Source: an uncultured virus (IMG/VR IMGVR_UViG_3300045996_002278)
Lineage: Duplodnaviria; Heunggongvirae; Uroviricota; Caudoviricetes
Length of the DNA stretch: 64,000 bases
IMG/VR virus record: IMGVR_UViG_3300045996_002278
Direction: 5' to 3' (one strand)
The number at the start of each line of letters is the position of its first letter. Position 1 is the first letter of the stretch. Under the pieces are notes generated by a model that saw only the letters and a list, made by a program, of their open reading frames with translations, searched no databases and was not told the DNA's origin. The translations under genes were made by a program, and so were the position numbers. Below, one piece after another: positions 1,799-32,748 of the stretch.

Positions 1799-1872
1799 TC
1801 AGGTGGACGGGACTCGAACCCGCATCTCCGGGGCCACAGCCCGGCGCTCTGACCATTTGAGCTACTCACCTA
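1799..1872 (-). tRNA. tRNA-His(GTG)-like gene with irregular acceptor stem
   Basis: D arm TAGCTCAAATGGTCAGAGC; anticodon arm CCGGG-CTGTGGC-CCCGG; T arm GCGGG-TTCGAGT-CCCGT. The acceptor pairs only with a bulged A. No encoded CCA. Confidence 0.8.
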
Positions 1873-3661: not shown

Positions 3662-4089
3662 ATCTGTCCCTCGTACTGGGGTGCCGTGCCCATGTGAAAG
3701 AGAGATACACCTGCTTTACGAAGCAGTGCAAGAGGTTCAGTAAGACGGTACGCTTCTCGATACACCACCAGATAGATCCCAGCGTTAATGATCAACGCAG
3801 CACAAGACTCACACGGAGAGTGAGTCGCGTAGAGGATTCGTCCCTGTGGATATGGGGACTTGATAAGAGCATTAGCCTCCGCGTGGACGCAGCCGCAGTT
3901 GCCGGGTTCATCAGCCCGACATTTGTGGGGCATCCCGGCAGGGGGTCCGTTATAGCCGATCCCCAGGATTCGAGTGTGCTGCTCATCGGTTACGACCGCG
4001 CCCACCTGGAGGAGACGCTCACAGACCGATCGCTGGGAGACTACCGCCGCGATCTGCAACATCATTTCCTGTTTCGTAATGCGGGGCAC
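3658..4089 (-). CDS. dCMP deaminase family protein
   Basis: VGAVV, GYNG, HAEANAL and SPCESC zinc motifs. Confidence 0.9.
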   Translation of the reverse strand: MPRITKQEMMLQIAAVVSQRSVCERLLQVGAVVTDEQHTRILGIGYNGPPAGMPHKCRADEPGNCGCVHAEANALIKSPYPQGRILYATHSPCESCAALIINAGIYLVVYREAYRLTEPLALLRKAGVSLFHMGTAPQYEGQI

Positions 4090-4375
4090 GCGGTGTTCCT
4101 TTCTGGTAGTCGTTCAGACAGCCGACCAGGTACTCCACCAAGGCCGGATCGTCGTGGTAGCCAAGGGTTGTCGAGTACCCCGGTTGGCGAAAGCGGATCG
4201 CGTAGTGGTACCGTTGGTTCGGCTGGGTGTCGCTCTTCAGGTCACGCTCTGCAAACCACGGCGGCAGACCCCGCATAGCTGCTGGCTCCTGGTAGGGTTG
4301 TTCGTTTAATTCCTGCTGCCTCTTCTTCGACCGATTCACGCGAACCGTACGAGAGGGCGGTTCGAAGTACGACAT
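4019..4375 (-). CDS. hypothetical protein
   Basis: 118-aa ORF with TAATG coupling to the upstream ORF. Confidence 0.5.
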   Translation of the reverse strand: MSYFEPPSRTVRVNRSKKRQQELNEQPYQEPAAMRGLPPWFAERDLKSDTQPNQRYHYAIRFRQPGYSTTLGYHDDPALVEYLVGCLNDYQKGTPRAPHYETGNDVADRGGSLPAIGL

Positions 4376-4540: not shown

Positions 4541-5461
4541 TTATCCTGGACCAGGGGGTGTGAGGCTATACGCATTACTCTCTTCCTTCCGGTATCGGCG
4601 CCCCATCCGGCCACGAAGGTTGGTCGGGCGTGACTTGAGGAGCTGGTACTTATGGAACTCGCAGAGTGTGTGTTCAATATCGGCCAGGCTGCAGTGGGGT
4701 TTCTCCTTCCAGGCGACATCGTTCCAGTCCAATCCCTGGTTATTCAGCACCTTGTCTCGGAGCTGCTGCAGGGTCCGAATGTCGGTTCCCATCTGCTCGA
4801 GCATCGAGCCTGACCCTCCCCCGGTGTTTCCTCCCTTCGCCTTGAACTTCCCCCCGTTGTTGTGGGTGTAGACCCACTCGTCGTCGGTCAGGTTCCCGAA
4901 CAGGTACGTCATGTCCAGGGCGACCTGATAGGCGGTGAACTTCCCCATCAGGGGAAAGCGCTGAATCATGATCCACGCCTGCTCGAGCCCCGTGGCACGC
5001 CACAGGTCCTGGGCTAGCAGGTAGGTGGGTGACCACGTGGACACCGCGGCCTCCACCCGCGCGAGGTAGTCCTTCCCCGGGTAGTTGCTCAGGGGTGGTA
5101 CCGTCCAGGCCCGGGTGGCGATCGTGTCGCCTCGCTGCTGCCGTGCCCGCATCTTCTTCATCCCCAGAAGGAACTGGGCGCCCCGGGCGGTTGGGCCGCC
5201 AAACGCCTCCTTCCAGGCGTCCACGTTGTTGAACACTCGGTACAGAAGAACGCTGAAGACGGTGTCCTCCAAGATACTACTCTTACGCATGATGTTCTTG
5301 ATCAGAAACTGCGTCCCTGGATCTAGCTCCCGATGCACGTTCACAAACCAGTAGCTGTGAAGGGTCGGGTCCTTCGTCCAGGGCCGTGGAATCTGAAGCA
5401 CCTCCCTTCGGTGCCAGATCGCTTGTCGTTCGTACGCAAACCGCCAGAACTCCTCGATCAT
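4541..5461 (-). CDS. aGPT-Pplase1 / HMUDK_hel-like DNA base-hypermodification protein (helical, HhH-glycosylase-like)
   Basis: FAYERQAIWHRR...PWTKDPTL..YWFVNVHRELD.GT; LYRVFN; G.FTAYQVALDM; DIEHTLCEFHKY. Confidence 0.8.
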   Translation of the reverse strand: MIEEFWRFAYERQAIWHRREVLQIPRPWTKDPTLHSYWFVNVHRELDPGTQFLIKNIMRKSSILEDTVFSVLLYRVFNNVDAWKEAFGGPTARGAQFLLGMKKMRARQQRGDTIATRAWTVPPLSNYPGKDYLARVEAAVSTWSPTYLLAQDLWRATGLEQAWIMIQRFPLMGKFTAYQVALDMTYLFGNLTDDEWVYTHNNGGKFKAKGGNTGGGSGSMLEQMGTDIRTLQQLRDKVLNNQGLDWNDVAWKEKPHCSLADIEHTLCEFHKYQLLKSRPTNLRGRMGRRYRKEESNAYSLTPPGPG

Positions 5462-9439: not shown

Positions 9440-10360
9440 CTACTCCTGCATGAAGGGTGCCTTCGTTGGCCCCTGAAGGGCCTGGGCCAGGGGGTATTCC
9501 TCCCCGGTCCGGAACCGGCGCCAATACGCCGGGTGCTCGAGGGCCGCGTAGGGAACTCGGGCCACCTTCTCGCACCACTCCGCCGCCACCTTGCCCAAGG
9601 CCACTACGTGGGCCGGGTCCAACAGGTCCATGAAGCCCGGGTGACACTCCGCGTCGGTCAGGTAGTCCCGGGCATTGATCCAGTACAGGGAGCGTTCGGG
9701 ATAGCCGACTCGCTCCAGCTCGTTGGTCAGCCACCAGCTCCCACCCTGCTCGAACTGCACGAATGGAAGCTTCGGCCCCTTGAGGTTGTCGTTGATCCGT
9801 TCCCCGACCATCAGGGTGACACCGCGGCGGAACGCGCCAATCCCTGGTCCCTCGTTCGGTGGCGGCCGGCGTACCTCGATCCGCTCCCGAACCTTTACCG
9901 CCTTCGATCCGACCGTGTAGTCCCAGTAGAGCTTGGGCAGGTCGGTCTGGAAGTGCCGGTAGCCGTCGTAGACCTGACGGTACCAGTCCTGATCCACCAC
10001 GTACTCACCACCCGCCAGGTTCCGCCGCGCCCAGTTCTCCTCTGCGATCTCATACCGAGCCAGGCAGATAAGAAGGACCGTGGACCGGGACAGGAGGTAA
10101 CGGTCCATCATCCGCTGGCGCGCCCGGTCGAACCAGGTTGGCCGTTGAAACAGGGGACCGTAGATCATCTCCGACGGGTAGAGCCGATCAAGCACCGCAT
10201 TCTCCGGCGTCTTTTGCAGACCTTCGAAGAACTTGAAGAACATGTTCTCCTGCGGGAAGTCCGGTGGACCCCACTTCACGTAGTGCAGATCCTGGAACGC
10301 CGGGGTCTGGCACAAGGTGGTCTTCCCACAGCCATCGGGTCCTTCAACCAGCGTAAGCAT
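9440..10360 (-). CDS. dNMP-kinase-like P-loop domain fused to a uracil-DNA-glycosylase-superfamily domain
   Basis: N-terminal VEGPDGCGKTT and LDR..PSE.IYG; C-terminal LMVGE, PF, WINA, VVALGKVA, HPAYWRRF. Confidence 0.8.
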   Translation of the reverse strand: MLTLVEGPDGCGKTTLCQTPAFQDLHYVKWGPPDFPQENMFFKFFEGLQKTPENAVLDRLYPSEMIYGPLFQRPTWFDRARQRMMDRYLLSRSTVLLICLARYEIAEENWARRNLAGGEYVVDQDWYRQVYDGYRHFQTDLPKLYWDYTVGSKAVKVRERIEVRRPPPNEGPGIGAFRRGVTLMVGERINDNLKGPKLPFVQFEQGGSWWLTNELERVGYPERSLYWINARDYLTDAECHPGFMDLLDPAHVVALGKVAAEWCEKVARVPYAALEHPAYWRRFRTGEEYPLAQALQGPTKAPFMQE

Positions 10361-10503
10361 GGTACTCCTTCTCCGTGGAAGGACTCGGTAATGCGACCAG
10401 CAATGCATGGAAACAGTCATTGAATCGACTGCCCTCGAGAATCATCATCCGGCCTTCAGGATCTACCGAACGGGGCCGAAAGCCGGTGTTCCGCTTCAGG
10501 TAC

Positions 10504-11247
10504 TCAGCGATCGCCGCCCGGGATGTTGGCGCCTGGATGCACGCCATCTTCCGGGGATACCCCTGGATCTCCAGCCACAGGTCCCACTTCTGTGGGGGTG
10601 TGACAGACCGCCACCTTGTGACCCTCGAACGAAGCCCGCTGAGCAGCAAATAGAATCCGGTGTAGGTCAGGAGGTTGCCAACCAGCCGGCTTAACCACGT
10701 CGAGCTTGTTCTTACGGATGGATTCCTCGTGCGACTGGACCCGAATCTTAGCCATGTTGGCATTCTGCACCTCATCCCATCCCAGTTGCCAGGGGAGTCC
10801 CATCATTGCCGCCGTACCGTGTGCGAAGTACACGAGGTCAATCAGGCTATCGAACACACCGGCCATATCACCGTTTCGTGCGTGGTCCACCATCTCGCGA
10901 AGCTCTTCCACCATCATCTGGATACGACCATAGAACTGATCATCCTGGTAGAAGGCACGCAGACCAAGGAGTTCGTCCTCAGCTCCCTTCAACAGGCTCC
11001 AGGCCGATAGTGCCTGGACCGCCTCGTGGGCGCCGGGCAGCAGCCGAGGAAACTCGGCGACCGGCAACCCGAACTTCTTCTGGAACGCCACCACGTCGTC
11101 AAAGTTAGACGGGGCGTGGGGCAGGTCATCCCCATTCCCGTACAACACGAACGCCGGCTCATGAATGACTTCGCCGGTCGCGTCCTCGACGGTCAGGTGT
11201 GGACGTGTCTCTTCCACCGGGTCTCTCCTTATGCTTGAGGTGTCCAA
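10504..11247 (-). CDS. MazG-like / PRA-PH all-alpha NTP pyrophosphohydrolase
   Basis: DVVAFQKKF, EELREM, DSLIDLVYFAHG, WDEVQNANMAK, KPAGWQPPD. Confidence 0.85.
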   Translation of the reverse strand: MDTSSIRRDPVEETRPHLTVEDATGEVIHEPAFVLYGNGDDLPHAPSNFDDVVAFQKKFGLPVAEFPRLLPGAHEAVQALSAWSLLKGAEDELLGLRAFYQDDQFYGRIQMMVEELREMVDHARNGDMAGVFDSLIDLVYFAHGTAAMMGLPWQLGWDEVQNANMAKIRVQSHEESIRKNKLDVVKPAGWQPPDLHRILFAAQRASFEGHKVAVCHTPTEVGPVAGDPGVSPEDGVHPGANIPGGDR

Positions 11248-11397: not shown

Positions 11398-12366
11398 TCA
11401 GTCCGGCCGGCAGATCCATATGTTGTTGCGGCTGTGATCCGGGTACAACGGCGCGAGGAAGGTCGACATCACCTCGTTCCCGTAGTACGCCTGCAAAGCG
11501 GTGAATGTTGACAAATGCTCCGGCGTCAACTGCTTCTTGAGAACGTTGACGGAGGCGAAGGTTCCGAAACGCCGTTCGACGGCCCATCCGTTGCCCTCCA
11601 GGGTTGACTGCAACTCAGGGATCGTGTACTCGTGAATGTGGTTCCGGGCACGGAACCCATCGAACACCGGGGTAGACAGCATCAGGACCCCGGACGGCTG
11701 CCCCAACGCCCTGTTCGGCGCCATGTTGATCAGGGCACGCATCGCCTGAAGAAGCCGGATACCGTCTGCCACGCTCATGTGCTCGATCACCTCGAAGCAG
11801 GTAATCAGCTCGAACGGGTAGCCCTCATCCTTCATCAGCTCCTCGTACCGCGAGGTGAGGTCGAACTCCTCATACAGCCCCACCATCGCCCGGCGGTTCT
11901 TGGTCTTGATCCGGTTCATGTCCACGCCAACGTAACGACCGGGGTAGTTGGCGTTGATGCCACCGATTAGCGCCTTGTAGAGCGGAATCTCAGGACCGCA
12001 GCCCACATCAAGAACAGAAGTAACGTCCCTGTTAATGACGTGGCGCGTCGCAAAACCCCAACGAAAGAAGTGCGAAGCGTAATCGCGGTGGACGATCTCT
12101 CCATGGAAATCCTCCGTGAGGTAGGTCTGGTCGAACCGCCGCGGCTCCCGGTCTTCCTTCCGCTTAGATCGGGCCTTCTGTTCCGGGGGAAGCACCTGGA
12201 GGTTATGGCCGGCCGACACCACAAGCTCTGGCGCGGTAATCTGGCCGATCTCCTCAGCCGCTTTCTCCGGGCTCTTCTTCTTTTTCTTCTTCGACTTCTT
12301 TACGGGAGGGTTTTCCTCCAGACCCTCCGCGTACGTATCGGTGTGGTACTCGGCAGCTTCACCCAT
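11398..12366 (-). CDS. class I SAM-dependent methyltransferase
   Basis: VLDVGCG, YVGVD, ITCFEVIEHM, LMLSTP, HIHEYT; Lys-rich N-terminal extension. Confidence 0.85.
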   Translation of the reverse strand: MGEAAEYHTDTYAEGLEENPPVKKSKKKKKKSPEKAAEEIGQITAPELVVSAGHNLQVLPPEQKARSKRKEDREPRRFDQTYLTEDFHGEIVHRDYASHFFRWGFATRHVINRDVTSVLDVGCGPEIPLYKALIGGINANYPGRYVGVDMNRIKTKNRRAMVGLYEEFDLTSRYEELMKDEGYPFELITCFEVIEHMSVADGIRLLQAMRALINMAPNRALGQPSGVLMLSTPVFDGFRARNHIHEYTIPELQSTLEGNGWAVERRFGTFASVNVLKKQLTPEHLSTFTALQAYYGNEVMSTFLAPLYPDHSRNNIWICRPD

Positions 12367-13457
12367 TATGCGGTCTTCCTCCCGTAGACGCCCCCGAGAA
12401 GATTCACGACGTAGAGCCGGGGCTCGGGCTCAGGAACGTTCGCGTCCAGGGCGGCCCTTACCTGCGAGGCGAGCCACTTCCCGACAGGCGGTAACACAGC
12501 CCTGGCGATCTGGGCATAGCAGACAGTAACCTTCCCCTGGAACTCGTAATCGTACGGATAGCCACAGAGAAGCTGCTGTTCCTTGATCGACAGGTGGCGG
12601 ATCTCGGTCGGGTGGTATAGGTGCTGCCCTCCCGTCACGGTTGGACTGTGCTTGTCGAAGTGGACCCGGGCGTGAAGGAATCCGGGGCGGGTGAACCGAT
12701 ACCCCTGGACCGACAGCTTGACATTCTTCGCGTACTCGGACTCCTCCCACATCTCCATCAGCTTTCCACCACCCCGGGGCGCGGGGTTCTGCTCCAGGAG
12801 AGAGGCGATGACCTTGCTGATGTTTCCATGCGGGCCGATTGGCTTACCCTCCATGGGCTTCCAAGCATCTGAAACCGTCATGTAGGGCTCGTCGGGCGGG
12901 GTGATCGGCAGCGCCACCCGGTGGGCCAGGAAAAAGAACCGCTTCCGCGGCTGGGCAAGTCCGCACTTCTGACCGTTGAGAATCAGGTGGGTGACCGAGT
13001 ACCCGTTCGCCAGACAGAAGGCCGTCTTGTCGTCGACGAACTGCTTGCCGGCCGTGTAGGCACGAGCCACCGACTCCCAGGTGAACGCCTTCGGCTGCAG
13101 CTCGAGCAACAGCTCGAACAGCCGGTCCGTGCACTTGGTCCGTTCATCCGACAGGTACCGGCCCTTGTTGTGGTCTACCGTCGCGTCCTTGCCCAGGGTC
13201 GGCTTGTGGCCGGCCGTAGACCAGGGGGCGCACGGCGGGTTGCCATACAGCCAGTCCACCGAGCCAGCGGTCTGCTGGATCGGCCAGTTCTCCTGCCCCA
13301 CGAACACGGGGAGGTCCGGCATGTTGTGGCGTACGGTGGGAACCCCGAACGGGCCTTCCTCGAAATGCGCGAGCACCTGGAAATGCTCTCGCACTCCCAG
13401 GGTGAACCCTCCGGCGAAGATATATGCGCCGAGGGCGGTGGGTTGACTCTCCGTCAT
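12366..13457 (-). CDS. DNA cytosine-C5 methyltransferase homolog with atypical cofactor motifs
   Basis: Motif IV GNPPC and motif VIII QPRKR intact; motif I YIFAGG, motif VI ESV and motif X QIARAV diverged. Confidence 0.85.
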   Translation of the reverse strand: MTESQPTALGAYIFAGGFTLGVREHFQVLAHFEEGPFGVPTVRHNMPDLPVFVGQENWPIQQTAGSVDWLYGNPPCAPWSTAGHKPTLGKDATVDHNKGRYLSDERTKCTDRLFELLLELQPKAFTWESVARAYTAGKQFVDDKTAFCLANGYSVTHLILNGQKCGLAQPRKRFFFLAHRVALPITPPDEPYMTVSDAWKPMEGKPIGPHGNISKVIASLLEQNPAPRGGGKLMEMWEESEYAKNVKLSVQGYRFTRPGFLHARVHFDKHSPTVTGGQHLYHPTEIRHLSIKEQQLLCGYPYDYEFQGKVTVCYAQIARAVLPPVGKWLASQVRAALDANVPEPEPRLYVVNLLGGVYGRKTA

Positions 13458-13476
13458 CTGTCTCCTCAGGGTAGGC

Positions 13477-13696
13477 TTACTTGAACTTCTTCTTCAACTC
13501 TTCTTTCAACTCCTCCGGGTACGGCAAGTTCACAAGGATATAGTCACGTTCGTCCTTGCGGATAGCATCATCCAAGTTGCTGAGAATCTTGTCGACCTTG
13601 GCACACTCCTTACAGTCCTCGAGCGTACACCGGTGGTGTATCTGGAGGAAGGCGATCCTGGCGCTCCGGAGCTTGGCCTTGGTCTTCTTGCTCATT
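13477..13696 (-). CDS. hypothetical protein with H/C cluster
   Basis: MSKKTKAK...HHRCTLEDCKEC; the start may lie further upstream. Confidence 0.55.
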
Positions 13697-13767: not shown

Positions 13768-13956
13768 TCACGGCTTCTTGATCGGGGTCACGTTAATGCA
13801 GACCTGGCAGCGACCAGCCGTGGCATGTTCCTCACACACGAACCGGTGGCAGGTGTTACATTGCTGGGCCTGGTTGATGCATCCGTATACTAAGCAGCTG
13901 GTCATGTAGCGGCCGTCCCCTAAGGAAATTGGCTGTCTTGAACTATCGTCCTTCAA
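13768..13956 (-). CDS. small Cys-rich zinc-finger protein
   Basis: CLVYGC...CNTC...VCEEH...CQVC. Confidence 0.6.
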   Translation of the reverse strand: MKDDSSRQPISLGDGRYMTSCLVYGCINQAQQCNTCHRFVCEEHATAGRCQVCINVTPIKKP

Positions 13957-15467: not shown

Positions 15468-16997
15468 TCAGAGACCCCAGAAGAGAGGGTTATGATACCC
15501 GACCAGCGTCAGGGACTCCTTCGCCCTGGTGACACCAACGTAGAACACGCGGCGTTCGACGTCAGGGAATCGGTCTAGCGACTCTCTGGTCTTTCGACTC
15601 ATGTCCGTGAGCAGGAGGACGTGATCTTCCTCCTCACCCTTGGCGCCGTGAATGGTAGACAGCCGGACCCGGGGTTGCTCGAACAGGGCCTTAGGTCCAT
15701 GGTACCGGATCACGTCTCGGAGGTACTGGATCTCCCGGTTGTCGATGCGGTCCAGGGCCATGTACCAGGGGACCTCGAGGCCGACCCCGATGACGTTCAG
15801 GAACTCATGCCCCGGGATCGTTCGGTGCTCCGCGGTCATCCCCTGGAGCTTTTGGCGAAGATTTCCCGGTACCCGGAGCATGGACAAACCTTTCAGCGCC
15901 GCCTTCAACTCCGTCCTGCCGAGGGGCTTGCCCGCCCTCGCTCGCTCCCACCACATAATGGCCTCGCCCCATTCGTGACCGGGACACGGCTTCTCGTGCA
16001 TCGAGTATGGTTGACCAATCGACTCGAGCCATCGTACCACCACCTTTGCCAGGTACCAGTTCCTGTAAAGGATCAACACCGTACCATCGGGAGGTAGGGT
16101 CGCGCGTTCGATCTCCATAATCTGGGTGAGTCTCCCAGCTACCTCCCTGGGCTGCCAGGATTTCGGCTGGCGCGTCTGGATCTTTGATGAGAGATAGTCG
16201 GCGACGTCGTACACGGCCCTGGACAACCGGTAGGAATGTCCCAAGACCTCCGACGTGCCCGTCAACTCTAAGAACGCCTCCGGGCTGGCGCCCGCCCACT
16301 CGTAGATGGCCTGGTCGTCGTCGCCCGCCACGTACAGTCGTTGCGCTGAGGTAGCGAAACGGTGCAAGGCTTGCCATTGTAAGCGGCTCAGGTCTTGGGC
16401 CTCGTCCACGATCACCACGTCCACCGGCAACTCCATCTGTCCCTGCTCGAGGAGGTCGGTGAAGTCCAACATCTCCTCTCCACTCCGCCAATCCTGGTAG
16501 GCTTGGCAGAATCTCTTCACCTCCCATTGGGTCAGGTCCTCCGGCCAGTGTTGGTAAGCCTCTTCCACGGTCATTAGATTATGGCGGCGGTAGTGGTCAA
16601 AGGCCAGAAGCTTATCGCCCTTTTCCGCTCCGCCACCAAGTATTAGCCCTGATTCTTCCTCCCTATCCGACGTGAAGCGCCCGGGACTGAACTGGTATCC
16701 CAACAGCTCCCCCAGGGGACGCAGGGTGTCCGCGCCCTTCAGGAGGGATTCCCCTGGTATTCGTAGGGTCTGGAACGCGATCGAATGCAGGGTCCTGAAA
16801 AACGGAAGTTGCTCGGGTGTCAGGTTGAACTTGGCTATCGCGCGGGACTTCGCTTCCCGGCGGGCTGCCACTGTAAACGTCAGGTAGGCGAGCCTCTCCG
16901 GGGCGACGCCGTTCTGAATCTCCTGCTCCATGATCTGAAGGAGGCGGCTCGTCTTTCCCGTGCCGGGTGGCCCAAAGATTTTGTGCGTCTGCATCAA
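15468..16997 (-). CDS. SF1 UvrD/Rep-like DNA helicase
   Basis: GPPGTGKT, RTLHS, VDEAQD, AGDDDQAIY, SYRL, STIHGAKGEE, YVGVTRAK. Confidence 0.93.
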   Translation of the reverse strand: MMQTHKIFGPPGTGKTSRLLQIMEQEIQNGVAPERLAYLTFTVAARREAKSRAIAKFNLTPEQLPFFRTLHSIAFQTLRIPGESLLKGADTLRPLGELLGYQFSPGRFTSDREEESGLILGGGAEKGDKLLAFDHYRRHNLMTVEEAYQHWPEDLTQWEVKRFCQAYQDWRSGEEMLDFTDLLEQGQMELPVDVVIVDEAQDLSRLQWQALHRFATSAQRLYVAGDDDQAIYEWAGASPEAFLELTGTSEVLGHSYRLSRAVYDVADYLSSKIQTRQPKSWQPREVAGRLTQIMEIERATLPPDGTVLILYRNWYLAKVVVRWLESIGQPYSMHEKPCPGHEWGEAIMWWERARAGKPLGRTELKAALKGLSMLRVPGNLRQKLQGMTAEHRTIPGHEFLNVIGVGLEVPWYMALDRIDNREIQYLRDVIRYHGPKALFEQPRVRLSTIHGAKGEEEDHVLLLTDMSRKTRESLDRFPDVERRVFYVGVTRAKESLTLVGYHNPLFWGL

Positions 16998-17551: not shown

Positions 17552-17875
17552 TCACGCCGTAGGCTGAAGTAACTCCCCAGGCGGAGGGTCAGTTTCAATG
17601 GTGGTTCGGGTCGTTGTTCCATCTGGCCGCCTGATTGACATGGTGAATCGTGGATGGATCTGTGCCCAGATACGTACCGAGATCGGCCGCCAGGAATCTT
17701 CTCCCTGCCACGTATGGAACGCGACCGATCCCTCAATCCCAATGTGATGAACCCGCCACTGCTTGATCAGCTTGTTCTCCTCATCCTTGTAGGAGACAAT
17801 GATCGCCGGGTCATCCTTGCAGTTTACCTCATTCCGGTCAAGGATAGACCGGCCAATGCTGACGTAGTACGGCAT
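17552..17875 (-). CDS. hypothetical protein
   Basis: Start re-called at MPYYVSIGR, TGATG coupling to thyX. Confidence 0.55.
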   Translation of the reverse strand: MPYYVSIGRSILDRNEVNCKDDPAIIVSYKDEENKLIKQWRVHHIGIEGSVAFHTWQGEDSWRPISVRIWAQIHPRFTMSIRRPDGTTTRTTIETDPPPGELLQPTA

Positions 17876-18600
17876 CAGAACTCTTCCGGGGGATTCCCCG
17901 TCTGACTCTCTTCCCATGCGGATACCGCGACCGGTACGATGGGGTGGATCAGATCCAGCATGGCAAAGGCGTACTGTTGAATCTCGTACTGGGCGTGGGG
18001 GTCAACCCTAAGCCCCAAGAAATGAAACAGGTTCCGCAGGTTCAGGGTCGTGAACATGTGGGTGTAGGTGTTCACGGGCAGCACCATCCGGGCCAGCTCC
18101 CGGGGCCAACCGGTGCTTAGCAGCTGACGGTACAACCCGAACGCCGCCTCGCAATGGGTATTGATGTACTCCAGTTCCTTAGCCCTTTGCTCGGCCCACT
18201 CCCCCGGACTCTGGGTATTTCTTCCCTGCTTGTTAGTCGCGGACTGCATGCCCACGACCATGGGTGAGGGCAGGTAGAACTCCTCTGACAGGGCACGGTA
18301 GCGACCAGACAGCTCGTTGTACGACTGGGTCCGGTGCCGATGCCACTGGCGCACGACGAAGATCGGTGCCTTCACCTCAAACGTAAAGGTCACCGCCTCG
18401 AACGGGGTAAAGTGCTGGTGCTTGTACAGGTAGTGGATCAGCTTCTCATCCGCGTGCTCGTCCTCCCCTGCCCGCCAGGCCGCGGCGTACGATACCCGCG
18501 CGGCCCGGACGATGCTGAGGTCACTACCCATGTGGTCCACGAGACGGACATACCCATGGTCCAACACGGGCTTAAACGGGTCAGAACTCGGGCTGGTCAT
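17875..18600 (-). CDS. thyX: flavin-dependent thymidylate synthase
   Basis: RAARVSY, HFTPFE, RQWHRHRTQSYNELSGRY, ELARMVLP, HAQYEI. Confidence 0.95.
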   Translation of the reverse strand: MTSPSSDPFKPVLDHGYVRLVDHMGSDLSIVRAARVSYAAAWRAGEDEHADEKLIHYLYKHQHFTPFEAVTFTFEVKAPIFVVRQWHRHRTQSYNELSGRYRALSEEFYLPSPMVVGMQSATNKQGRNTQSPGEWAEQRAKELEYINTHCEAAFGLYRQLLSTGWPRELARMVLPVNTYTHMFTTLNLRNLFHFLGLRVDPHAQYEIQQYAFAMLDLIHPIVPVAVSAWEESQTGNPPEEF

Positions 18601-28656: not shown

Positions 28657-29736
28657 TTAAGCAATCGCGAGCCCATAGACTGTGACCCTGCCAACCGTAA
28701 AGGTTCCAGCCGAAGGGAATATCTTCAGCCCCGTGATAGCATCGGTCTGCTCGAGTGACGCGCCGCCACCGTGCATCACCATGTCACCCGCGGCGGAGGT
28801 AATGGCCGTGCCCTCAACGGTTGCCAGCTTCCAGATGCTGCCGCTTGCGAGGCAGGAAAGTTCAAGCCGACTGGCGAAAGATTTCCAGGCATCGTTCCCC
28901 GTCAGATAGGAAGAGGTACCACCGTGGATGATCGGGATGGAGGTACCGGAGGCCGGGGTATTCTGGGCCGGCTGACTGGTGCCACCATCATCACCGTAAG
29001 CATTGTGGCGCCAGCGATAACCCGTGGTCCGAAGCACGCTGTTGGTGTAGAGCTGGGCGAAGGTCGAGACGGCATTATCCGACACCTGAATCCCGTCCAT
29101 CAGCACAATGACCCGGCGGTAGGGGCTGAAGTCTAAGCTGGAGAAGTCGAAGATACCACCTACCGGCGCGGCCATGTGTTGGAGAACAACCCACACCGGG
29201 TCAGTGTCGGCCGATGACTTCACCCCATAGAGGGTCGCAGAACCTCCCGCCCAGCCGGTGGATGCCGCGATCCGGATACGATCAATCGCGCCGGTCTGGT
29301 CGAGGCTGCCACCCTGGTAGGAGTTGACGAGGGCTCCGCTGGGAGAGTTCCAACAGCCATAGCCATGGTGTAGCTTGTTACGGCCAGCCCCAGGATTACG
29401 GATGATCAGGTGCATCATCCCGCACTCACCCGCCGCGTTTCCCTGGCCCCAGGTGGTCGTGGTGTCGACGCCGATGATCCGGGCGGAGGGATCGCTCGAG
29501 TCCTCGCCATCATTGTTGGCGCCGCTGGAGCTTTCTCCTCGAGTACCGTACCGATAGAGGGCGGTGTGAAGCGAGCCACCGATCCCATACTCCAGGGTGC
29601 CGCGCACGCCATCCGCTCCCGCGATAAGACCATCGAGGTGCAGGTGCAACCGGCGATAGGACCCCAGGGATAGCCCGGTGAAGTCCCATGCTCCACTGGT
29701 CGGGGTGTTGATGTGTTGAATCAGCTCGTAGCTCAC
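28657..29736 (-). CDS. virion/tail-associated protein with two tandem beta-rich repeats
   Basis: Two ~175-aa paralogous domains, each starting xDF..L....YRR and ending G..T(L/V)YG. Confidence 0.7.
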   Translation of the reverse strand: MSYELIQHINTPTSGAWDFTGLSLGSYRRLHLHLDGLIAGADGVRGTLEYGIGGSLHTALYRYGTRGESSSGANNDGEDSSDPSARIIGVDTTTTWGQGNAAGECGMMHLIIRNPGAGRNKLHHGYGCWNSPSGALVNSYQGGSLDQTGAIDRIRIAASTGWAGGSATLYGVKSSADTDPVWVVLQHMAAPVGGIFDFSSLDFSPYRRVIVLMDGIQVSDNAVSTFAQLYTNSVLRTTGYRWRHNAYGDDGGTSQPAQNTPASGTSIPIIHGGTSSYLTGNDAWKSFASRLELSCLASGSIWKLATVEGTAITSAAGDMVMHGGGASLEQTDAITGLKIFPSAGTFTVGRVTVYGLAIA

Positions 29737-30932
29737 AGGTTCACCACCTTCTGATAGGTTACCAGGGTTACGCCGGTGTGACGCTTGCCGGTCCAGTCCA
29801 CGGTCAACTGGCTGGCGCCGGTCTTGGAGATGTCGATCACCCCGTACTGGTTGTTGTTGGTGTAGCGACCCGCGCCCTGGTCGTAGGTGGCGCCACCGTG
29901 GGTCTCCGCGCCCGTGCGATCCAGGGGAGCTACCTGGAAGGTAGGGATCGGATCTCCGCCACCCGTGCTGAAGTCGTGGTTGGCGCCGGAGTCGATGGCC
30001 AGGCTGTGCATGTCCGCCGAGACGACGAGGACCCGTCCGGGCGCCTCAGCCTTGAAGTGGTCGGCCAGCTCCGTCCTTTCGGTCGTGAAGCCACCCCAGT
30101 GGTCGGCGCTAGCCGTCGCGACACCACCCCAGGTACGAGAGCACACCCAGATGAAAAGCTTGTCATCGTTCGCGGCGTCGGAGAACAGACCCTTGAACCA
30201 AGTCTTCTGGGCGGTACCCAGTATGGTCTTGGAGCTGTTATCCGTAGCAGTTCTATTGCTTGCCATACTCCGCTGATCGGTCACGATGAAGATGACCCCA
30301 AGGCCACCCACCGAGACCTCGTACGCGAAGTACGGCGCGTCGGTATCACCACTCTCGACCAAGGTGGGGCTAGGTACCACCTTACGATAGGCGCGGCAGG
30401 CACCTGCCCTGGTACCGCTGGTCGAGAAGGAGTCGTTGGGACCGAAGTCGTGGTCGTCCCAGCAGTAGAGGTTTGACATCTCACGACGGAGTTGTCCCTG
30501 CTTCGGCAGCGCCATGATCCTATCGTACGGGGCGATGTGGCTGCTGATGGTTGCTTCAACCGGCTCCTCGTAGTGCTGATCACCCATGTGGATAAAGAAC
30601 TTGGCGTTCTCTCCCCGGATGGCATCGAACACCGCGTGGTCGCTGTCCGTATCCGCGTCGCCGCTGAGACAGACCTTCAGGGTGTTGGCCGAGGCGTCAA
30701 GCATTCGGGCCTGACCAACCTGACCCGCGGCGGTTTGGAGCACACCGTCAATTTCCACCGCCAGGTAGTACAGGCTGCCGGCGGTCAGGCCGGTGATCGA
30801 GGGCTTGGCCCTGTGATTCACCGTGTTGACCGCCGAGCCGTAGGTAGGGCTGGACATATCCGAGGATAGGGACGCGGCCAGCCGCACCTCCGCGTCCATG
30901 GTCAGGTTGACCGCTACGGTAACGCCAGCCAT
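29733..30932 (-). CDS. phoD: PhoD-family alkaline phosphatase/phosphodiesterase
   Basis: HMGDQHY, WDDHDF, DQRS, ILG.AQK.WF, DHWGGF..ER, SADMH; no signal peptide. Confidence 0.85.
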   Translation of the reverse strand: MAGVTVAVNLTMDAEVRLAASLSSDMSSPTYGSAVNTVNHRAKPSITGLTAGSLYYLAVEIDGVLQTAAGQVGQARMLDASANTLKVCLSGDADTDSDHAVFDAIRGENAKFFIHMGDQHYEEPVEATISSHIAPYDRIMALPKQGQLRREMSNLYCWDDHDFGPNDSFSTSGTRAGACRAYRKVVPSPTLVESGDTDAPYFAYEVSVGGLGVIFIVTDQRSMASNRTATDNSSKTILGTAQKTWFKGLFSDAANDDKLFIWVCSRTWGGVATASADHWGGFTTERTELADHFKAEAPGRVLVVSADMHSLAIDSGANHDFSTGGGDPIPTFQVAPLDRTGAETHGGATYDQGAGRYTNNNQYGVIDISKTGASQLTVDWTGKRHTGVTLVTYQKVVNL

Positions 30933-31600
30933 TAGGACAACGCTCCTACCCAGAGGCTGACCAGCTCGGGTGTTGGGGTGTCAGGGGTTCTATCGGCGGT
31001 CTGAATGCCGTAGACGGTAACGGTTCCGCTGGTGATGATCGCATTGTTGGTAACGATCAGCATCCCGGTCAAGGGCTCGGTGGTCTCAATCGCGGCAGCC
31101 CCGTACGCCGTAATGACGTGACCCGCGGTGCTGAGCCAGACGCACCGGTGATTGACCATCTTGTACAGGGTAGCGCTGTCGAAGTTATGGATCTCAAACT
31201 CAGCATTGAAGCTGGCGCCCGAGTCTTCATCCATACCAAAGGAAGCGGTACTGCCCCCCAAGATACGAATCTCTCGCTCTGTGGTACTGGCCGTGTTGGT
31301 GCTGGCCCCAGAGCTTGAGGTAGCGAGATGGCGCCAGGGGTAGTATCCCAAGCCCAGGAGGACACCCGCGGCATAGAAGGACAGGGTAAGGAATCCCTCG
31401 GTTGCCCCAGCGTCCAGGTCGAACCGAACCTCGTCTAGCTCCACGATGATCCGGGAGTAGCCCGCGAGGTCGAGCCCGGTGATGTCGAACACCCCGTCCA
31501 CCGGCGCGGAGTAGTGGGCGATGAACACCCAGTTATCTCCCGCCGGAACTACGGGGATGTCCGCTGCCCCGGACCCACTGGCCATAATTCCTGGGATCAT
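30932..31600 (-). CDS. virion/tail-associated protein, paralog of the 28657-29736 repeat domain
   Basis: MIPGIMAS start; FDITGLDLAGYSRI...GTVTVYG. Confidence 0.7.
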   Translation of the reverse strand: MIPGIMASGSGAADIPVVPAGDNWVFIAHYSAPVDGVFDITGLDLAGYSRIIVELDEVRFDLDAGATEGFLTLSFYAAGVLLGLGYYPWRHLATSSSGASTNTASTTEREIRILGGSTASFGMDEDSGASFNAEFEIHNFDSATLYKMVNHRCVWLSTAGHVITAYGAAAIETTEPLTGMLIVTNNAIITSGTVTVYGIQTADRTPDTPTPELVSLWVGALS

Positions 31601-32748
31601 GCAGCCTCCAGATTACCGAAGAGATCCCACTCGTTCGTTCCCACCTTCTTGGCGGTAAAGGCGGCGAAAGCGCCGGACGTGAGCAAGGTCTCAGGCGTGT
31701 TGATGGTCACCCCGGTATCGGCCACGAGGGTCACCTGGCCCTGGGTGCCGATCCCGTGAATCTCCGTCCCAACCGGATAGGCCACCGAGCCGTTGGCCGG
31801 GATGGTAAAGGCGCAGCCGGCCGCGTTGGTGAACCGGATGTAGGTATTCGCGTCCCCCAGGACCCCGGTGTAGGTTGCCCCCGACTGGGTGGCCACTGGG
31901 GCAGGTACCGGATTCGCCTCCAGGGCGTCAATTCTGGTGTCAAGGTTCTGACCTTCCAGGGTATCGAGCCGACCATCCAGCAGACCCAGCTCGGTGGCGA
32001 TCTCGGCCAGGGTATCGAAGGCCGCAGCCACGCCGTTCTTGAGAGCATCAATGGCCGCGGTCACGAAGGTCTGGGTCGCGATCAATGCACCCTCGACCGT
32101 GGGCGCACCCTGGAGGTCCACATCCTCCTTGATCGTGGGGTTGGGGTACGCTCCCTCGAGGTCACCACCCGCATCTCCCTCCGGTTCCGAGCCAGAACCC
32201 GGCCGAGCGAGAATCAGCCAGCGGTCATTGTCGCCGTCCGCCACGAAGATGGTTCCTTCGAACTCGGAGTCAAGGATGCGGCTCGCGGCACCACCAATTT
32301 CTTCAACACCATCCGGTTGAACGGTAACGGTATTCGCTGAACCATCCACCTTGAAGACGGCAAAGTGGACCCCATCTACATCTGCAGCCGGAGGCAGGGT
32401 GACGACTACCGGACCAGCCGTGGCGTCGACGGTGATGACCTCATCCCCCTCCACGATCGTGTAGTCCGTAGTCTTATCCTCGACCGGGGCGTGCTTGAGG
32501 CGGAAGGTACCTTCACCACCTTCGCCACCCTCACCGATCGCAGCCTGAACCCAGGCGTCATTGGCCTCGTTGCGCACGAAGATACCCAAGATCTCCGTCC
32601 AGCCAGTATCGGCGTCGGTCTTTATCCAGGGCATTCCGGCCACCACGATGGTCGGCCAGGTGGTGAACGGGTCGGTGTTCCGGATGAATGCGAAGCCTGG
32701 GAACACGTTGAACGGCTGATTCATTACCGCTTGGTAAAGGCCAGGCAT
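31597..32748 (-). CDS. tail fiber-like protein
   Basis: KTTDYT...VDATAG.V.VTLP, AGGDLEGAYPNP, AFDTLAEIA, and C-terminal KVGTNEWDLFGNL. Confidence 0.7.
   Translation of the reverse strand: MPGLYQAVMNQPFNVFPGFAFIRNTDPFTTWPTIVVAGMPWIKTDADTGWTEILGIFVRNEANDAWVQAAIGEGGEGGEGTFRLKHAPVEDKTTDYTIVEGDEVITVDATAGPVVVTLPPAADVDGVHFAVFKVDGSANTVTVQPDGVEEIGGAASRILDSEFEGTIFVADGDNDRWLILARPGSGSEPEGDAGGDLEGAYPNPTIKEDVDLQGAPTVEGALIATQTFVTAAIDALKNGVAAAFDTLAEIATELGLLDGRLDTLEGQNLDTRIDALEANPVPAPVATQSGATYTGVLGDANTYIRFTNAAGCAFTIPANGSVAYPVGTEIHGIGTQGQVTLVADTGVTINTPETLLTSGAFAAFTAKKVGTNEWDLFGNLEAA

Follow-up and report, generated by a model that had tools for sequence, protein, structure and literature searches.

A cytosine C5-methyltransferase-fold enzyme and its class I partner as candidate tailoring enzymes of a cytosine-replacement cassette in an uncultured soil siphophage

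In a window of 64,000 nucleotides (the whole stretch analyzed here, from IMG/VR record IMGVR_UViG_3300045996_002278), which covers most of the genome of an uncultured soil siphophage (GC fraction about 0.6, almost every gene encoded on the minus strand), we found a gene for a protein with the fold of the cytosine C5-methyltransferases (hereafter the C5 enzyme) that overlaps a gene for a class I S-adenosylmethionine (SAM) methyltransferase (hereafter the partner). We give a probability of roughly one half to the reading that this pair is a two-enzyme tailoring step on DNA containing 5-hydroxymethylcytosine (5hmC), i.e. the variable part of a cytosine-replacement cassette and not a CmoA-CmoX pathway of cytosine carboxymethylation. 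The pair probably makes an undescribed modified cytosine. Its features are as follows.

12366..13457, minus strand: open reading frame (ORF) of the C5-cytosine methyltransferase fold, 363 aa, with Cys76 (NPPC), Glu128 (ESV), QPRKR and Arg319 (QIARAV)
11398..12366, minus strand: class I SAM methyltransferase ORF (the partner), 322 aa, Methyltransf_23, UbiG/Hen1/CmoM-like
12364..12368, minus strand: TAATG stop/start overlap between the C5 enzyme and the partner, read from the sequence
12501..12503, minus strand: Arg319 codon AGG (cct on the plus strand), at the motif X Asn position that corresponds to Asn304 of HhaI and Arg350 of SpCmoX

The evidence that carries this reading is the company that the C5 enzyme keeps. 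In the window, the pair is found together with genes for a set of enzymes predicted to act on deoxycytidine monophosphate (dCMP) and related nucleotides.

17875..18600, minus strand: ThyX flavin-dependent thymidylate synthase, the maker of deoxythymidine monophosphate (dTMP)
15468..16997, minus strand: UvrD-type helicase, which anchors the synteny of the cassette on its upstream side (56 of 79 related loci)
10504..11247, minus strand: MazG/PRA-PH-type nucleoside triphosphate (NTP) pyrophosphohydrolase, a candidate for clearing the deoxynucleoside triphosphates dCTP or dUTP
9440..10420, minus strand: P-loop deoxynucleoside monophosphate (dNMP) kinase-like protein, with a YorR-like N-terminal half and a C-terminal extension of about 160 aa
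8210..9133, minus strand: thymidylate synthase (TS) homologue, predicted to be of the 5-hydroxymethyl-dCMP synthase type, closest solved relative MilA
3748..4083, minus strand: dCMP deaminase homologue, identified by tblastn with the deaminase of related cassettes

In E. coli ThyA numbering, the window TS homologue has Asp in place of L143 and N177 while retaining Cys146 and Asp169, and it matches the CMP hydroxymethylase MilA at E 3e-32, as against 5e-18 for a true TS. PMC13326640 connects Asp at N177 with dCMP as the substrate, Asp or Glu at L143 with the transfer of a hydroxymethyl and not a methyl group, and Asn at D169 with the 5-hydroxy-dCMP synthases. Because of the Asp residues at L143, D169 and N177 and the catalytic Cys, the homologue is predicted to be of the 5-hydroxymethyl-dCMP synthase type. 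ThyX makes dTMP, and the ThyA-like gene is therefore free for another role. A DNA polymerase A is encoded downstream of the pair on the same strand. The 5hmC route of phage T4 uses the same enzyme roles, namely a dCMP hydroxymethylase (gp42), a dNMP kinase (gp1), a dCTPase (gp56) and a dCMP deaminase, and has glucosyltransferases in addition. The cassette should consequently occupy C5 of the phage cytosines with a hydroxymethyl group. The deaminase gene is hidden under a longer, spurious plus-strand ORF (3694-4278) and is missed by a plain longest-ORF call. For the kinase-like protein, the sole solved match is the uncharacterised prophage protein YorR (E 0.007); the 160 residues of its C-terminal extension (9440-9928, minus strand) also occur in the 327-aa gp29 of phage AXL3 but are missing in most related cassettes, whose kinases have 191 aa, and their match to uracil-DNA glycosylase (UDG) is insignificant (E 0.044).

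By employing an alignment-based scan of IMG/VR (the single sequence of the C5 enzyme as a query gave no match), we obtained 79 loci of the clade to which the C5 enzyme belongs. MazG was found in 64 of these, a TS homologue within 8 kb in 62 and the UvrD helicase in 56, while homologues of SpCmoA and SpCmoY were found in none. All 62 TS homologues have Asp or Glu at L143 and Cys at position 146, and 61 each have Asp169 and Asp at N177, the single exceptions being alignment gaps. Out of the 17 loci with no TS homologue within 8 kb, the downstream sequence extends no further than 2.6 kb in 15, and the other two, both with Gln at motif X, carry an Asp-type TS elsewhere in the record. One 8.7-kb fragment has no TS homologue. 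The linkage persists in rearranged gene orders (L003, L046/47, L073 and L078). Wherever the sequence suffices, the clade is strictly associated with the 5-hydroxymethyl-dCMP synthase cassette. The MetaGPA supplement was uninformative, with figures of 27 vs 1436 for Methyltransf_23 (corrected p = 1) and 6 vs 846 for DNA_methylase (depleted, not significant).

The overlap of the two genes can be read directly. Positions 12360-12373 of the plus strand are cacccattatgcgg, which gives a TAA stop at 12368-12366 and an ATG at 12366-12364 on the minus strand, and a Shine-Dalgarno-like GGGAGGAAG is located just upstream of the TAATG, within the 3' end of the C5 enzyme gene. A separate study's soil metagenome contains a 3727-nt contig that has 0 differences over positions 11955-13560 of the window, and thus neither the gene junction nor the Arg codon is due to misassembly. 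A sequence-only reading of this stretch had already pointed out the translational coupling to a class I methyltransferase, the Arg codon in a motif X of YAQIARAV, the intact catalytic PC and QxRxR, the YIFAGG and ESV of motifs I and VI and the DVGCG and FEVIEH of the partner, all of which hold in the translations and, for the Arg codon, in the independent contig.

The C5 enzyme matches PF00145 over residues 15-333 in a Pfam scan (E 1.4e-23), and its AlphaFold model, built from an alignment, displays the standard DNA C5-methyltransferase fold with a mean predicted local distance difference test score (pLDDT) of 93.3 and a predicted template modeling score (pTM) of 0.92. Motifs I, IV, VIII and IX of the canonical set are present, while motif VI is ESV and motif X has AR for GN; the stretches in question are YIFAGG (12-17), GNPPCAPWS (72-80), TWESV (126-130), QPRKR (169-173) and YAQIARAV with Arg319. 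With the NCBIfam dcm model the enzyme scores 59.3 bits, under the cut-off of 100.65, and it falls outside this canonical family. The residues for cytosine flipping and attack at C6 are kept (Cys76, Glu128, Arg171 and Arg173), as is the site for the nucleoside part of the cofactor (the Gly-rich motif I and Glu33). The pocket, on the other hand, is rebuilt compared to that of ordinary enzymes, with Asn changed to Arg319, ENV to ESV and GPPCQ to NPPCA.

That an Arg replaces the Asn of motif X, as first proposed from the letters alone, was confirmed by three kinds of alignment. In a phmmer search against all solved chains the top match was SpCmoX (8YF3, E 7e-10), with 'aqiaRav' of the C5 enzyme opposite 'ervgRmv' of 8YF3 and 'qvgNav' of DNMT1. 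A profile of 120 homologues gave the same register against 8YF3 and M.HaeIII ('miGNAV'), and adding the C5 enzyme to the alignment placed Arg350, Cys98 and Glu47 of SpCmoX at Arg319, Cys76 and Glu33, respectively. The location of Arg319 relative to the cofactor pocket is derived from these alignments and not from model coordinates.

The rebuilt pocket is a property of the clade. A word-based search with the C5 enzyme gave 285 homologues at E <= 1e-5, and among the best 120 of these, which were aligned for residue counts, the motif X site is Lys in 42, Arg in 39, Gln in 39 and Asn in 0. In an exhaustive profile search, 905 cluster representatives (50% identity) passed E <= 1e-30, which sets an upper limit for the clade, and in the best 150 of them the site is Arg in 81, Lys in 38, Gln in 31 and, again, never Asn. 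With no Asn in either set, its replacement is not due to chance. Cys76, Glu128, Arg171 and Arg173 are invariant in both sets, Asn73 of NPPC is found in 120 of 120 homologues and 147 of 147 aligned representatives, and ESV is kept in 116 of the 120. With up to 905 cluster representatives the clade would be widespread. It is virus-only: a survey of one genome from each of 185,579 prokaryotic species yielded just three clade loci, all on contigs of metagenome-assembled genomes, two of which carry the same TS type as the window. Among 50,697 phage records the closest match has at most 27.8% identity to the C5 enzyme. Inteins with LAGLIDADG endonuclease domains occur in P0247, P0252, P0261, P0266, P0273 and P0277, and the insertion lies right after about residue 73-105 of the C5 enzyme, at or near the catalytic NPPC motif.

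Fusions connect the C5 enzyme to the partner. Among 49 long homologues (637-2000 aa, E <= 1e-10), 31 have a C5 domain followed by a partner-type methyltransferase domain, in the same order as in the window, and in IMG/VR three distinct fusion proteins were found on four contigs. Since so many of the long homologues join both domains in this order, the C5 enzyme and the partner appear to work together. In another ten the C5 domain is fused to a 341-aa protein and in one to MazG, while two contain a UDG-superfamily domain (P0273: PF03167, E 8.4e-27) and several have inteins at the catalytic motif. Judging from these domain combinations, the C5 enzyme seems to be regularly joined to an enzyme of the hydroxyl-decorating kind. 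In 47 of the 79 loci (e.g. L033:9444-10469) the gene of the 341-aa protein, which has no Pfam hit, is situated between those of MazG and the kinase; fused forms of the protein include P0255, P0259 and P0262. Among the named Atlas clusters, those closest to it are T4 beta-glucosyltransferase (score 0.95), which is a lead only, and nearby genes for a UDP-glucose dehydrogenase, an epimerase and an NAD-synthase-like protein suggest an unusual sugar. We had also considered the NAD-synthase-like and UDP-glucose-dehydrogenase genes as evidence of a carboxylate handle, but dropped this since they are adjacent genes and uronamide sugar-nucleotide synthesis is the simpler explanation.

The partner matches Methyltransf_23 at E 9.6e-9, and its N-terminal, approximately 60 residues are Lys-rich and disordered, which together with the fusions to a DNA enzyme suggests DNA as its substrate. 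All profile matches are weak, e.g. UbiG at 7.6e-9, HENMT1 at 4.4e-7 and Hen1 at 8.8e-7; with the NCBIfam UbiG model it scores 18.9 bits vs a cut-off of 102.95, and it reaches no curated cut-off. Its fold neighbors include CmoM (8JOZ, rank 19, E 1.3e-7) and other O- and C-methyltransferases. On these matches, weak as they are, it is best described as a putative UbiG/Hen1/CmoM-like class I methyltransferase. It shares with these families the Rossmann core and the S-T-P turn after strand 4, and its motif F-D/E-L-I-T-C-x-E-x-I-E-H is nearly identical in HENMT1, whereas its matches (E 1e-9 to 1e-7) remain under every family cut-off and no counterpart of its conserved N-terminal block (RRFDQT...VHRDYAAHFFRWGF) was found. 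Across 82 sequences the invariant residues are E192, E195 and H196 (FEVIEHM) as well as H243 and E246 (NHIHEYT). In Hen1, a Glu-Glu-His(-His) set binds metal. A phmmer search with the segment from EVIEH to NHIHE alone gave HENMT1 at E 0.8, which is not significant.

The partner is not a CmoA. It has no match to the CmoA model TIGR00740 at E <= 1, an hhalign comparison with SpCmoA aligns the Rossmann core only (104 columns, 24% identity) with FEVIEHM opposite SLFTLQFM, and CmoA was not found among the best 50 Foldseek matches listed. The observation in the sequence-only reading that the partner is without CmoA-type motifs is thereby upheld. Its two suggestions for the role of the partner fared worse: nothing supports a maker of a different SAM analogue, and a simple finishing of the C5 enzyme product is contradicted by the occurrence of the partner and the cassette without the C5 enzyme. 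The partner family has 583 matches at E <= 1e-5, and 80 IMG/VR loci with a partner contain a TS homologue in 63 cases (all Asp-type), MazG in 53, the deaminase in 54 and the C5 enzyme in only 11. The partner and the cassette without the C5 enzyme are also found in Stenotrophomonas phage AXL3, Pseudoxanthomonas phage PW916 and MW202621.

The cassette itself resembles systems in which 5hmC is made and then decorated. The T4-type pathway and the metavirome module of PMC8670742 likewise combine a TS homologue having L143 and N177 replaced by Asp with a kinase, an all-alpha NTP pyrophosphatase and a dCMP deaminase, and in these systems, as in the window, the core is flanked by a slot of variable content for decoration of the 5-hydroxymethyl group. 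The content of the slot differs, being a glycosyl- or carbamoyltransferase in the T4-type and metavirome systems and the C5 enzyme plus a class I methyltransferase in the window. On metavirome contigs selected for modified cytosine, according to PMC8670742, TS with Asp177 occurs together with PRA-PH and dCMP deaminase, and a neighboring carbamoyltransferase tailors the 5hmC. Another close relative is the gp27-gp31 region of AXL3, which has the same order of methyltransferase, NTP pyrophosphatase, 327-aa kinase-like protein, TS homologue (DVPC...RSSD...PYD) and dCMP deaminase, plus ThyX. Its gp31 is 39.7% identical to the window partner, while the C5-methyltransferase-like gene is not matched in AXL3. 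Of 37 restriction enzymes, 35 failed to cut AXL3 DNA, among them every tested one with G or C in its site; the two that cut, TasI and Tru1I, have AT-only sites (PMC7504290). Our literature searches turned up no account of a C5-methyltransferase homologue linked to a dCMP hydroxymethylase, nor of the chemistry proposed below, and neither the C5-methyltransferase-fold enzyme nor its class I partner has been described before as a 5hmC tailoring enzyme.

The C5 enzyme would most likely act on the hydroxymethylated base, because the cassette fills C5, the residues for C6 attack and cofactor binding are kept, and the pocket is rebuilt. How it would do so we can only propose tentatively: the C5-methyltransferase scaffold may serve as a rewriter of 5hmC that expels the hydroxymethyl or hydroxyl group and installs a polar side chain, kept in place by Arg, Lys or Gln, which a Hen1/UbiG-like methyltransferase then caps. 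After replication, the C5 enzyme would engage the (hydroxymethyl)cytosines of the phage DNA, and covalent catalysis at C6 would allow the C5 side chain to be exchanged for, or extended to, a polar and probably acidic group held by Arg319. In the most concrete version the hydroxymethyl group would leave as formaldehyde, and host carboxy-SAM (Cx-SAM) would then donate a carboxymethyl group; an alternative would be substitution at the exocyclic methylene. Downstream, the partner would methylate an oxygen of the side chain (hydroxyl or carboxyl), a capping role that in other phages may be taken by the glucosyltransferase-like domain. The product, e.g. 5-methoxycarbonylmethyl- or 5-alkoxymethyl-cytosine, would be a new cytosine derivative that shields the DNA from host nucleases.

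Several points weigh against the tailoring of 5hmC by this pair. To our knowledge, there is no natural C5-methyltransferase homologue that uses 5hmC as its substrate, and the proposed chemistry leans on in vitro side reactions of M.HhaI and M.SssI. The cofactor site and alkyl-transfer residues that are kept are those needed for ordinary alkyl transfer to an unsubstituted C5, and a two-domain fusion is no proof of sequential chemistry. Gln, found at motif X in a fifth to a third of the clade, is a poor fit with a charged ligand. The co-occurrence counts are inflated by shared descent, most of the 79 loci representing one synteny. Full replacement of cytosine in the window phage is a presumption. 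The closest solved relatives of MazG, 3NL9 (an unnamed putative NTP pyrophosphohydrolase) followed by DR2231 (a MazG-like NTP pyrophosphohydrolase), do not seem to mark it as a dCTPase. The source contig measures at least 74.5 kb, about 10 kb of it lying outside the window. Lastly, the family profile scores SpCmoX and M.HaeIII nearly equally (98.1 vs 96.8 bits), and the clade is therefore not specially close to CmoX, its basic residue being possibly convergent; the Arg at motif X may, in that case, say little about the cofactor.

The strongest competitor, although unlikely, is that the C5 enzyme is CmoX-like and uses Cx-SAM from the CmoA of the host to form 5-carboxymethylcytosine (5cxmC) at its recognition sites, on unmodified or escaped cytosines, or under partial replacement, and that the partner then converts the carboxyl group to its methyl ester, the reaction carried out by CmoM on tRNA. 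In essence this is the idea of the sequence-only reading, with the cofactor supplied by the host. In SpCmoX, the CmoX of Synechococcus phage S-B43 (PDB 8YF3), Arg350 contacts the carboxymethyl group of Cx-SAM, the wild type accepts Cx-SAM only, and the R350N mutant is dead (Yang et al., Nat Commun 2025, PMC12783734). The same source reports that E. coli's own CmoA is enough for SpCmoX to form 5cxmC in vivo, and that 4257 CmoA were found on the contigs of 5615 candidate CmoX, defined by SPPC and R350; some candidates may therefore lack CmoA on their own contig. The C5 enzyme resembles SpCmoX as a phage-encoded C5-methyltransferase fold with the catalytic Cys (Cys76 for Cys98), a small residue after it (PPCA vs PPCS), an Arg at the Arg350 position and all residues for alkyl transfer and cofactor binding conserved, and SpCmoX is its top match by both sequence and fold. 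CmoM, furthermore, is among the structural neighbors of the partner, and the nearest cultured relatives of the window phage by DNA polymerase infect Proteobacteria. Proteobacteria usually have cmoA.

Other findings speak against a CmoX-like enzyme. The lead of 8YF3 among the Foldseek matches (E 1.4e-18) is marginal, barely ahead of MET1, DNMT1 and M.HaeIII, and identity to the S-B43 enzyme is only about 20-27% in the alignments. Where CmoX has SPPC and ENV, the C5 enzyme has NPPC and ESV, NPPC being found in 120 of 120 homologues, and its motif X site varies between Arg, Lys and Gln (Gln in 31 of 150 representatives). CmoA was not found in the window, neither by tblastn with SpCmoA nor by Pfam and PHROGs scans, nor in the 79 C5-clade loci and the 80 partner loci, and TIGR00740 had no match in five whole viral relatives, four of which are at least 97% complete. 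Likewise, the CmoY ligase was not found in the window or its relatives. The partner is without the C5 enzyme in 69 of its 80 loci. The clade is found only with the 5-hydroxymethyl-dCMP synthase cassette, which is expected to block C5, and the CmoX-like reading does not account for this linkage; the main text of PMC12783734 mentions neither thymidylate synthase, hydroxymethylase nor NPPC. The carboxymethylation pathway suggested in the sequence-only reading thus stands in part. The Arg does align with the carboxylate-binding Arg350 and the two genes are coupled, and in relatives fused, whereas a source of Cx-SAM was not found in the window, loci or relatives, and both genes are accessories of a cassette expected to occupy C5.

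Quite improbable, in our view, is an ordinary sequence-specific methyltransferase forming 5-methylcytosine, with an odd motif X kept by descent and a partner that has a separate job, e.g. O-methylation of 5hmC. All canonical catalytic motifs are there in a confidently modeled standard fold, and in AXL3-type phages the partner does without the C5 enzyme. Two phage DNA methyltransferase domains are often fused without taking part in sequential chemistry. With SAM, the engineered M.MedI-N377K still methylates fully and M.MpeI-N374K partly (28%) according to PMC12015181, and a Lys at motif X is therefore compatible with methyl transfer. SpCmoX with its Arg, on the other hand, could not use SAM (PMC12783734), and the replacement of Asn in 150 of 150 representatives, correlated with NPPC and ESV, indicates that a different pocket has been selected. 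Cellular restriction-modification systems have no member of the clade, whose strict tie to the hydroxymethylase cassette would leave a plain C5 methylase little or no substrate. Least probable of all is an attack of the C5 enzyme on unmodified host DNA (by alkylation, or deamination followed by excision) that shuts off or recycles the host chromosome while the 5hmC of the phage is immune, which would explain the co-occurrence with cytosine replacement without new 5hmC chemistry and agrees with the genuine UDG-superfamily domain of P0273 and a UDG-like gene beside the C5 enzyme in one related locus (L027), but leaves the frequent O-methyltransferase-like and glucosyltransferase-like fusions unexplained, has no precedent and finds no nuclease partner in the window.

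If the pair does act on hydroxymethylcytosine, it would be the first natural cytosine C5-methyltransferase scaffold that rewrites an already modified base, and the counter-defence repertoire of phages would gain a new tailoring-enzyme family and, probably, a new DNA base. Such enzymes are of direct use in the chemistry of epigenome sequencing, a field that already employs engineered Asn-to-Lys methyltransferases. If the C5 enzyme is instead a CmoX that depends on host Cx-SAM, the 2025 discovery would be extended to a second, unrelated clade and to phages combining two cytosine modifications. The clade is large and absent from the cultured phages in the collection searched, and AXL3, a related cultured phage that has the partner gene only and possesses restriction-resistant DNA, offers an immediate experimental entry point.

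A few further genes of the window deserve mention, one of which was considered as part of the modification pathway.

4541..5461, minus strand: 5-hydroxymethyldeoxyuridine (5-hmdU) DNA kinase-like protein, PF18723, E 1.3e-45

As the TS homologue is of the cytosine type and ThyX is kept, this protein may phosphorylate 5hmC and not 5-hydroxymethyluracil in DNA. PF18723 was found in none of the 79 clade loci and in one of the five whole relatives, and is not a general companion of the clade; a route in which the phosphate of 5-phosphomethylcytosine is the ligand of Arg319 was for this reason rejected as a general model. A short ORF rich in Cys (62 aa, CNTCHRFVCEEH...CQVC, 13768-13956, minus strand), which lies upstream of the C5 enzyme beyond a 90-aa ORF, is probably a zinc ribbon. 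A PhoD-like phosphatase/phosphodiesterase (PF09423, E 5e-16) is situated among the tail genes (29733-30932, minus strand). ARAGORN identified a tRNA-His at 1799-1872 (minus strand) and a tRNA-Glu(ctc) at 32171-32250 (minus strand), the latter inside a 383-aa ORF (31597-32748) and probably a false call.

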